Shown here: piece by piece, positions 1,860-2,472 of the stretch
Position numbering within the stretch: the first letter of the stretch is position 1
Layout of the letters: each line of letters opens with the position of its first letter
Virus record (IMG/VR): IMGVR_UViG_2531839237_000019
Source of the DNA: a virus
Taxonomy: Duplodnaviria > Heunggongvirae > Uroviricota > Caudoviricetes
Length of the DNA stretch: 8,037 nt
Direction: 5' to 3' (one strand)
Program-made: the position numbers and the translations under genes
Notes under the pieces: model-generated
The model's input: the letters and a program-made list of their open reading frames with translations, nothing else
Told to the model about the DNA's origin: nothing
The model's database searches: none

Positions 1860-1920
1860 GAATTTAGAATAGCCTAAGAGTTATGGTCAAGCTTTTTGTG
1901 TAGAAAAACCTAAGCTTCTT
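1860..1920. promoter_or_regulatory. Candidate leftward (PdicB-like) promoter and operator region downstream of dicA
   Basis: Contains TTAGAATAGCCTAAG (1864-1878), whose reverse complement CTTAGGCTATTCTAA matches 12 of 15 positions of ATTAGGTAATTCTAA (2397-2411) in the dicA/dicC intergenic region. A further CCTAAG lies at 1909-1914. On the minus strand a TTGACC hexamer sits next to the CTTAGG element. Confidence 0.4.
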
Positions 1921-1988
1921 GATGTAAAAAACACAAGTATTTGAAAGTTTGTGCTTTTTATTACAGAGAGTTGCGAAAAAAAGGGGGG

Positions 1989-2396
1989 TTATTTATTTGC
2001 GCTTCTTTTGCGAGCTTTGAGTAGTTCTTCAAAAAGTTTGTTGAAATTCTCAACTCGAGCACGCATCTCTGACAACAGAGCCTTTTGCTCTGACTCAGGC
2101 AGTGCGTCGAACAGTTGAAGCAACTCTTTTTGATCTTCTGTCAGATTGACTGGCTGATTATCTGGGATCGGTTCGCCTGGTTGCTTATCTTCATCTCCAA
2201 AAAGAAGCCAAGTCGGCGAGCACTGAAGCGCCTGGCTCAGTGCGAATAATCTCTTCCCCGCTGGCTGTGTTTCATCTCTTTCCCATTGAGAAATTGTTAC
2301 GTGAGCCACTTTGACCAGCTTACCTAATGCGGCCTGAGACAGTTTTAATTTTTTTCGCCTGTATAAGAGGCGAGCACCGAAGGTTTCGTTTTTCAT
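1989..2396 (-). CDS. dicA: DicA-like HTH (XRE-family) repressor, 135 aa
   Basis: Translation MKNETFGARLLYRRKKLKLSQAALGKL...LFALSQALQCSPTWLLFGDEDKQP...ALPESEQKALLSEMRARVENFNKLFEELLKARKRS matches E. coli DicA as recalled, at the same length. Divergent from a Cro-like gene. ATG at 2396, TAA at 1989-1991. Confidence 0.85.
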   Translation of the reverse strand: MKNETFGARLLYRRKKLKLSQAALGKLVKVAHVTISQWERDETQPAGKRLFALSQALQCSPTWLLFGDEDKQPGEPIPDNQPVNLTEDQKELLQLFDALPESEQKALLSEMRARVENFNKLFEELLKARKRSANK

Positions 2397-2472
2397 ATTA
2401 GGTAATTCTAATTTTTCTTGACTTAGGTTTCTCTACGATCTAGTTTCCTTAGGAAAATCTAAGGGTTTCGAT
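2397..2472. promoter_or_regulatory. Divergent dicA/dicC promoter-operator region
   Basis: TTGACT (2418-2423), a 17-nt spacer, then TAGTTT (2441-2446) is a candidate PdicC. Operator-like inverted repeats are TTAGGTAATTCTAA (2398-2411) and CTTAG-gaaaat-CTAAG (2448-2463), with another CTTAGG at 2422-2427. On the minus strand a TAGAAT -10-like hexamer ends 8 nt before the dicA ATG, which has no SD. Confidence 0.6.

Follow-up and report, generated by a model that had tools for sequence, protein, structure and literature searches.

Does one repressor govern both sides of a Qin-like prophage immunity region? The question is raised by a stretch of 8,037 nucleotides from the IMG/VR virus record IMGVR_UViG_2531839237_000019 (the window, meaning here the whole stretch), in which a gene for a DicA-like repressor lies between a divergent dicC-like gene and a second promoter that points leftward. 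A sequence-only reading of this DNA had proposed that TTAGG/CCTAA inverted repeats form a single operator motif, through which one DicA-like protein coordinates the divergent dicA/dicC promoters and the promoter of a leftward division-inhibition operon. We conclude, with a probability of roughly 0.8, that the locus is the immunity switch of a Qin-like lambdoid (PPompW-type) prophage, in which a DicA-type repressor ties the dicA/dicC promoters to that of the dicF/dicB operon through five predicted operators.

Two of these sites (OL1 and OL2) lie at the leftward promoter, and three (ORa, ORm and ORc) lie between the divergent dicA-like and dicC-like genes, whose intergenic region measures 76 bp. 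The two genes and the five sites are:

1862-1879, minus strand: OL1, 18 bp, TCTTAGGCTATTCTAAAT (core 1864-1877); exact match to both TTAG-N6-CTAA and TTAGG-N4-TCTAA
1898-1915, minus strand: OL2, 18 bp, GCTTAGGTTTTTCTACAC (core 1900-1913); one mismatch to the pattern
1989-2396, minus strand: dicA-like repressor gene, 135 aa (NCBIfam, Pfam and K-12 identity)
2396-2413, plus strand: ORa, 18 bp, TATTAGGTAATTCTAATT (core 2398-2411); exact match
2421-2438, plus strand: ORm, 18 bp, ACTTAGGTTTCTCTACGA (core 2423-2436); one mismatch
2447-2464, plus strand: ORc, 18 bp, CCTTAGGAAAATCTAAGG (core 2449-2462); exact match, the most symmetric of the five
2473-2700, plus strand: dicC-like (Cro-type) gene, 75 aa (NCBIfam, Pfam P22_Cro and K-12 identity)

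The five sites share the 18-bp form TTAGG-N4-TCTA(A/C). Across the 8-kb window, exact copies of TTAG-N6-CTAA lie at 1864, 2398 and 2449 and one-mismatch copies at 1900 and 2423, with just one more of the latter, at 7924; the asymmetric pattern TTAGG-N4-TCTAA likewise yields three exact and two one-mismatch sites. The sequence-only reading had counted at least five such repeats, and the number is exactly five, three exact and two with a single mismatch. We found no third OL site, even at two mismatches. All five are asymmetric: a strong half, TTAGG, is paired with a weaker one, TTAGA or GTAGA. In every site the TTAGG half lies upstream relative to the outward-pointing promoter, so that the minus-strand OL sites and the plus-strand OR sites are mirror images around dicA, as in lambda. 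The centres of OL1 and OL2 are 36 bp apart, and the OR sites are spaced by 25-26 bp.

This recurrence is far above expectation. Three exact TTAG-N6-CTAA matches stand against 0.10 expected in the window, and none of 1,500 first-order Markov (Markov-1) simulations reached three; five sites at no more than one mismatch inside 610 bp were likewise seen in 0/1500 simulations, and at least five sites in the two intergenic stretches, simulated at their own AT-rich composition, in 0/6000. These simulation figures are optimistic, because the pattern was taken from the same data, but the same core has been defined independently by the K-12 operator Oc (PMC3441716) and by the motif from chromatin immunoprecipitation sequencing (ChIP-seq) of K-12 DicC (PMC11430063). 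The similarity to which the sequence-only reading had pointed, between the 15-mer at 1864-1878 (reverse-complemented, CTTAGGCTATTCTAA) and that at 2397-2411 (ATTAGGTAATTCTAA), is correctly counted at 12 of 15 positions; a 15-mer pair with at least 12 matches is nevertheless present in 42% of shuffled region pairs (P = 0.42), so this match alone is at chance level. A better pair had been missed: OL2 and ORm agree at 14 of 15 positions (CTTAGGTTT[T/C]TCTAC). ORa and OL1 agree at 14 of 18. Between the two regions as a whole, 12 pairs of 15-mers have at least 12 matches, compared with 1.3 expected. The evidence for the sites is therefore their recurrence, clustering, dyad symmetry and positional conservation, in place of the 12/15 match.

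The two proteins are true members of the DicA and DicC families, as had been supposed. The DicA-like protein matches NCBIfam NF007257 ("transcriptional repressor DicA") over its full length (residues 1-135) at 241.6 bits against a cut-off of 101, and the DicC-like protein matches NF007282 (DicC) at 167.6 bits against 130, as well as Pfam P22_Cro; identity to the K-12 Qin proteins is 63% for DicA and 83% for DicC. Pfam matches of the 135-residue DicA-like protein were confined to HTH_3, with no peptidase S24 or RecA-cleavable C-terminal domain. Its residues 2-69 match the N-terminal DNA-binding domain of P22 c2 (1adr, 2r1j; E = 1e-21), including conserved Val33 and Gln37.

The sites lie on or beside promoter elements, which we placed as follows, together with a candidate terminator:

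1861-1890, minus strand: leftward promoter (equivalent of K-12 dicBp), -35 TTGACC (1890-1885), 18-nt spacer, -10 TAAATT (1866-1861); consensus scan, 9/12 matches
1925-1960, minus strand: hairpin and U run after the dicA stop codon; RNA fold -11.2 kcal/mol, z-score -3.5 against shuffles
2418-2446, plus strand: dicC promoter, -35 TTGACT (2418-2423), 17-nt spacer, -10 TAGTTT (2441-2446); read from the sequence, with a positional homologue in K-12

At the leftward promoter, OL1 overlaps both the spacer and the -10, and OL2 lies farther upstream, 9 bp from the -35; the K-12 equivalent, TTGACC-17-TAATCT, lies in the same place. The hairpin is probably the dicA terminator, parting dicA from the leftward promoter. 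On the other side, ORm overlaps the final base of the dicC -35 and the spacer, and ORc begins directly after the -10 and spans the expected transcription start; in K-12, the start of the corresponding promoter (TTGACT-17-TATCTT) was mapped by 5' rapid amplification of cDNA ends (PMC3441716). The dicC and dicA promoters were placed by homology to K-12 and by the reported leaderless K-12 dicA mRNA. ORa abuts the dicA start codon and holds TAGAAT (2410-2405, minus strand), 8 nt from the ATG at 2396, which is the probable dicA -10 hexamer. The gap from this hexamer to the dicA ATG is 6-10 nt in all relatives, and no Shine-Dalgarno sequence is visible by eye before dicA here or in any relative. As K-12 dicA mRNA is leaderless (PMC4681348, Fig. 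2A), the dicA mRNA here appears by analogy to be leaderless too, and ORa would thus overlap the dicA -10 in the manner of lambda OR3 and PRM. This placement of ORa goes beyond the sequence-only reading. The dicA -35 is poor (GAGAAA at 17-nt spacing, or TAGAGA at 19 nt), consistent with an activator-dependent promoter.

The leftward promoter precedes ydfC and the DicF RNA, with dicB just outside the window, which bears out the description of its transcript as a division-inhibition operon:

109-158, minus strand: DicF small RNA gene (Rfam RF00039, 49.4 bits against a gathering score of 48)
705-1112, minus strand: unnamed open reading frame (ORF)
1135-1353, minus strand: ydfC, as annotated in identical E. 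coli records

In a 100% identical record, dicB lies about 66 bp past the left edge of the window (L001 1648-1836, where window base 1 is L001 1902). Bases 600-2750 are 100% identical to chromosomal prophage DNA of Shiga-toxin-producing E. coli (STEC), and bases 1800-2720 share 99.8% identity with "PPompW" prophages deposited alongside Stx2a phages. Rightward of dicC follow YdaT-like, DnaT/O-like and P-like replication genes. The 5' leader of the leftward operon (about 60 nt, approximately 1795-1855, minus strand, CATCAAGACACCGCACGGTGTTCTCAGCAAACAGTTCCGCTACCCGGCGTTAAGGGG) is conserved across K-12, Pantoea, Citrobacter and many viral contigs, even though they differ in the first gene downstream. 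RNAalifold gave only a 4-bp hairpin for it (CGCY/RGCG, with two compensatory sequences), and a search of Rfam returned nothing better than E ~1; the leader could be a nut-/put-like antitermination element or a protein-binding element. A stretch inside the P-like gene, CTGAGCGTTCCGCCAGTCCGGCGACAACTGGCGG (4575-4625, plus strand, motif at 4591), resembles the leftward-leader motif of relatives, GTTCCGCCAGCCTGGCGACAAGGG, and carries a 7-bp inverted repeat. This resemblance is probably due to chance, as no counterpart was found in the 2.5 kb upstream of dicA (the rightward-operon side) in 8 relatives.

Are the sites kept where the surrounding DNA is not? We compared 11 loci from other species (Pantoea, Enterobacter, Erwinia, E. 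ruysiae, E. albertii, Buttiauxella, Citrobacter and Yersinia), found by a protein-seeded scan of one genome per species, and added about 100 IMG/VR prophage loci for diversity, giving 73 distinct regulatory-region pairs overall. All five positions are conserved, with DicA identity falling to 52-75%; conserved sites were present in Pantoea, Enterobacter, Erwinia, Citrobacter, Buttiauxella, Yersinia, E. albertii and many IMG/VR prophages, and the DNA around them has diverged. Conservation in related prophages had been named beforehand as something the proposal depended on, and it is found at every position. Upstream of dicA, the relatives' sites begin at positions -66, -40 and -15/-16 relative to the ATG; downstream, a TTGAC/TTGCC -35 is flanked by two sites 35-36 bp apart. 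When 22 diverse loci were aligned, every site kept its TTA and TAA without exception, as the leftward -35 kept its TTG, and the DNA from the dicA stop codon to OL2 could not be aligned. OL1 keeps its position in all relatives and ORa is conserved in every class of relative; some relatives carry a P22-like TTAAG half-site.

Within this conserved frame, the base flanking the TTAG core changes along with helix 2 of DicA, and it does so in both regions at once. Among loci whose DicA helix 2 reads SQAAL or SQSAL (the window, Pantoea, Enterobacter, Erwinia and many viral contigs), a G occupies position 2 in 1 of the 146 distinct half-sites; among those whose helix 2 reads TQR (K-12, E. albertii/E. 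ruysiae, Citrobacter, Buttiauxella and Yersinia), the count is 36 of 46. The window allele has the flank C/T-TTAGG, compared with TG-TTAG in K-12. The class found in E. ruysiae and E. albertii, and present also in E. coli, amounts on sequence comparison to a natural swap experiment. Its DicC is 92-93% identical to that of the window with an almost identical helix-turn-helix, its DicA has the same helix 3 (VAHVTISQWERDET) but TQREAARLAG as helix 2, and its operators read TGTTAG...CTAACA, including the ORc that adjoins dicC. Position 2 thus follows DicA helix 2, not DicC nor physical linkage, because the swap class changes ORc beside a near-identical dicC; a check for covariation between DicC and the operators found none. 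This dependence on DicA helix 2 and not on DicC is the other point added here to the sequence-only reading. The covariation is a comparative signature of one repressor reading both regions, and the position-2 pattern is comparative evidence for DicA as the reader of ORc, OL1 and OL2; the same data suggest that DicC reads the common core only.

The immunity region is also mosaic internally. In the prophages of E. ruysiae and E. albertii and in some of E. coli (L006, L007 and L116, compared with window bases 1989-2700), dicC and the ORa/-35 segment are near-identical to those of the window, dicA is 66% identical, and the flanks of ORc, OL1 and OL2 differ and match the prophage's own dicA. This implies that recombination breakpoints lie inside the 76-bp control region and that operators are co-selected with the repressor.

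The homologous locus of K-12 Qin provides the experimental background, and experiments on K-12 and O157 homologues have addressed repression of dicC, the dicB operon and dicA by DicA and DicC (PMC3441716, PMC10448788, PMC6915034). K-12 DicA binds Oc in vivo and loses this binding after a single A-to-C change; from Oc it acts as repressor of dicC and activator of dicA (PMC3441716). Deletion of K-12 dicA induces dicBp 22-fold, operators have been described in both intergenic regions (three per region), induction proceeds through the antirepressor Rem and not through RecA/SOS, and K-12 DicA likewise lacks a cleavage domain (PMC10448788). ChIP-seq of K-12 DicC gave peaks on either side of dicA with the palindrome TT(A/C/T)G...C(G/A/T)AA, together with hundreds of host sites (PMC11430063).

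The window and K-12 Qin share their order (dicC divergent from dicA, a terminator, then a promoter that points in the same direction as dicA into ydfC-dicF-dicB), a 135-residue DicA with no cleavage domain, the TTAG-N6-CTAA core, sites that begin at -66 and -15/-16 relative to the dicA ATG, and a site that falls in the leftward promoter between its -35 and its -10. ORc is positionally equivalent to K-12 Oc (TTGTTAGTCATAACTAACAA; also written TTGTTAGTTATGACTAACAA), and OL1 occupies the position of the K-12 dicBp operator TGTTAGTCATGGCTAATC. Set against the K-12 dicA/dicC operators, as the sequence-only reading had proposed, the sites of the window thus agree in position and core but differ in their flanking bases: C/T-C-TTAGG here, T-G-TTAG-(T/C) in K-12. 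The two loci also differ in DicA helix 2 (SQAALGKLV compared with TQRSLAKAL) and helix 3 (AHVTISQW compared with SHVSVSQW), in the middle OR site (good here, poor in K-12), in the right arm, which in the window retains ydaT and O/P-like replication genes, and in a disrupted ECs_2282 zinc-ribbon gene that replaces ydfA and ydfB.

The likeness extends to phage P22, whose operator consensus ATTTAAGATATCTTAAAT consists of TTAAG half-sites around four central base pairs that the repressor does not contact (PMC5175364, PMC4267663). The window shares with P22 immC the 18-bp operators in a 7+4+7 layout (TTAAG-N4-CTTAA in P22, TTAGG-N4-TCTAA here), a homologous N-terminal DNA-binding domain and a Cro-type protein of the P22_Cro family. 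It differs from P22 at half-site position 6 (G here, A in P22), in having His for Asn32 in DicA helix 3, in the length of the repressor (135 aa without an S24 domain, compared with 216 aa for P22 c2) and in having only two detectable OL sites, and K-12 Qin is induced through the antirepressor Rem and not the SOS response (PMC10448788). As A-tract operator centres bind best in P22 (PMC4267663), ORc, which has the centre AAAA and the best symmetry, should by analogy be the strongest of the five. With lambda the window has in common divergent repressor and cro genes around three operators, a repressor gene in the same orientation as the PL-like promoter downstream of it, OL and OR sites mirror-oriented around that gene, and a leaderless repressor mRNA with its -10 inside the repressor-proximal operator (shown for K-12 dicA, PMC4681348, and expected here). 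Unlike lambda, it has a different DNA-binding fold subfamily and operator sequence, no evident N gene in the leftward operon, and three OR but two OL sites instead of three of each.

We therefore favor a switch built like those of lambda and P22 immC, for which we infer binding itself, the order of affinities, activation of dicA and the protein that uses ORa and ORm. A DicA-like dimer, with a P22-c2-type helix-turn-helix and no RecA-cleavable domain, would sit on 18-bp operators in which a 7-bp half-site, C/T-C-TTAGG, and a weaker 7-bp partner (TTAGA or GTAGA) flank four A/T-rich central base pairs, probably uncontacted. Occupancy of ORc, at the dicC transcription start, and of ORm, at the -35 and spacer, would turn off the rightward dicC-ydaT-replication operon, and, if ORc acts as K-12 Oc does, its occupancy would also assist the weak promoter of the leaderless dicA mRNA. 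With OL1 occupied at the -10 and OL2 upstream of the -35, the ydfC-dicF-dicB division-inhibition operon would be silenced. ORa, at the dicA -10, would be the likely site at which the Cro-like DicC, and possibly excess DicA, shuts off dicA, like lambda OR3. DicC would recognize the shared TTAG...CTAA core, and DicA would additionally read flanking position 2 through helix 2, which would confer immunity specificity (C or T here, G in K-12). Flank covariation and the K-12 homologues thus support the part of the original proposal in which DicA reads both regions. The notion of a single repressor is too simple, because K-12 DicC was bound on both sides of dicA, and DicC very probably shares these sites; nor need the regulon be compact, because K-12 DicC binds hundreds of host sites. 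The proposal is in essence the published K-12 model applied to a homologous locus, and offers no new view of the regulon.

Several observations weigh against this switch or against parts of it. The consensus promoter scan that found the leftward promoter left the dicC and dicA promoters below threshold. The OR spacings of 25-26 bp and the OL spacing of 36 bp are not whole numbers of helical turns, so cooperativity is unproven. The helix-2 covariation comes from three or four clades rather than from numerous independent events. ORm is a full site in the SQAAL class only, and the sequence-predicted K-12 sites Om and Oa were not bound by DicA in vivo (data not shown in that study; PMC3441716), so by analogy DicA may not use ORm and ORa; the promoter hexamers that overlap them (TAGAAT and TTGACT) can account for some of the conservation seen in ORa and at the right end of ORm. 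These last points bear on an alternative in which only a subset of sites (ORc, OL1 and perhaps OL2) are true DicA operators, and ORa and ORm are Cro/DicC sites or mainly operator-like promoter elements. It would fit the in vivo K-12 binding at Oc only, the dicA -10 hexamer within ORa, the overlap of ORm with the dicC -35, the degeneration of ORm in TQR-class relatives and the almost unchanged sequence of ORa across all immunity classes. However, the 14/15 match of ORm with OL2 and the 14/18 match of ORa with OL1 in the window's class exceed what promoter hexamers explain, and the dicA-proximal half of ORa keeps a class-specific base (ATTAGG here, GTTAG in TQR classes). We consider this alternative unlikely, if the most serious of those we weighed.

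Might the main reader of the sites instead be something else, for example a regulator of the host such as YjdC, or the repressor of a co-resident prophage? Host YjdC can repress DicA targets when DicA is absent (work cited in PMC11430063), and STEC genomes hold up to five related loci, but position 2 tracks helix 2 of the adjacent DicA across classes, even where dicC and the remaining region are near-identical, which makes such a reader very improbable. Least credible of all is that the repeats bind nothing and that their likeness reflects chance, or common descent, in AT-rich intergenic DNA. The 12/15 match does sit at chance level, and the whole-window count at no more than one mismatch is marginal (6 observed compared with 2.6 expected, a number reached by about 5% of shuffles). 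The excess of exact sites and the clustering in the simulations argue otherwise, as does the retention of positions down to 52% DicA identity while the flanks diverge; operator and repressor co-vary, the homologous K-12 site has been validated experimentally (PMC3441716), and the comparative data effectively refute an origin by chance.

Farther from the switch, several genes appear broken. A CxxC zinc-ribbon gene of the ECs_2282 family (1447-1647, plus strand; NCBIfam 55.7 bits against a cut-off of 37), convergent with ydfC, stands in place of K-12 ydfA-ydfB and is interrupted by a TAA (1486-1488); E. coli AR_0162 (L115 2132-2332) has the gene intact, at 66 aa. The 99-aa "hypothetical protein" called opposite it by the Prokaryotic Genome Annotation Pipeline (PGAP; ORF 1426-1725, minus strand), which had no family hit, is probably a spurious call. 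A DUF1627 gene (4735-5469, plus strand) has an in-frame TAG at 4786-4788 after 17 codons (METVFDALKAMGKATSV*) and is probably nonsense-disrupted; its publicly annotated coding sequence begins just past this TAG. The segment 5470-6300, with short broken ORFs only and an AT-rich segment, looks like degraded or moron DNA and precedes a 252-aa secreted substrate-binding-like protein (6329-7087). A hok/sok-type toxin-antitoxin module lies at 7276-7578 (plus strand), where a sok RNA (Rfam 103.9 bits) overlaps a Hok-like ORF (7366-7578).

Taken together, these data place the locus as a heteroimmune member of the DicA/DicC (P22-c2-like, non-cleavable) immunity family, whose wiring is already known from K-12. 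The K-12 DicA model carries over to this prophage with a changed specificity base, and our understanding of how such switches work is unchanged. What is gained are base-level operator and promoter coordinates for a STEC prophage switch over the DicF and DicB division inhibitors; several O157:H7 prophages express DicF orthologues. The covariation of helix 2 with position 2 also offers a cheap, testable rule for assigning Qin-like immunity groups and for anticipating cross-talk between co-resident prophages. More tentatively, and at less than even odds, sequence comparison raises the possibility that immunity specificity in the DicA/P22-c2 family is set by the N-terminus of helix 2 at position 2, and not by the recognition helix (SQAAL selecting C/T, and TQR, through its Arg, selecting G), with DicC reading only the TTAG...CTAA core. 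If so, natural mosaics would keep the same DicC and helix 3 with helix 2 and operators swapped, and where one STEC genome carries several Qin-like prophages, repression by DicA would be specific to each prophage, but heteroimmune neighbors could have their dicF/dicB operons cross-activated by DicC and by ORa, which is class-independent.

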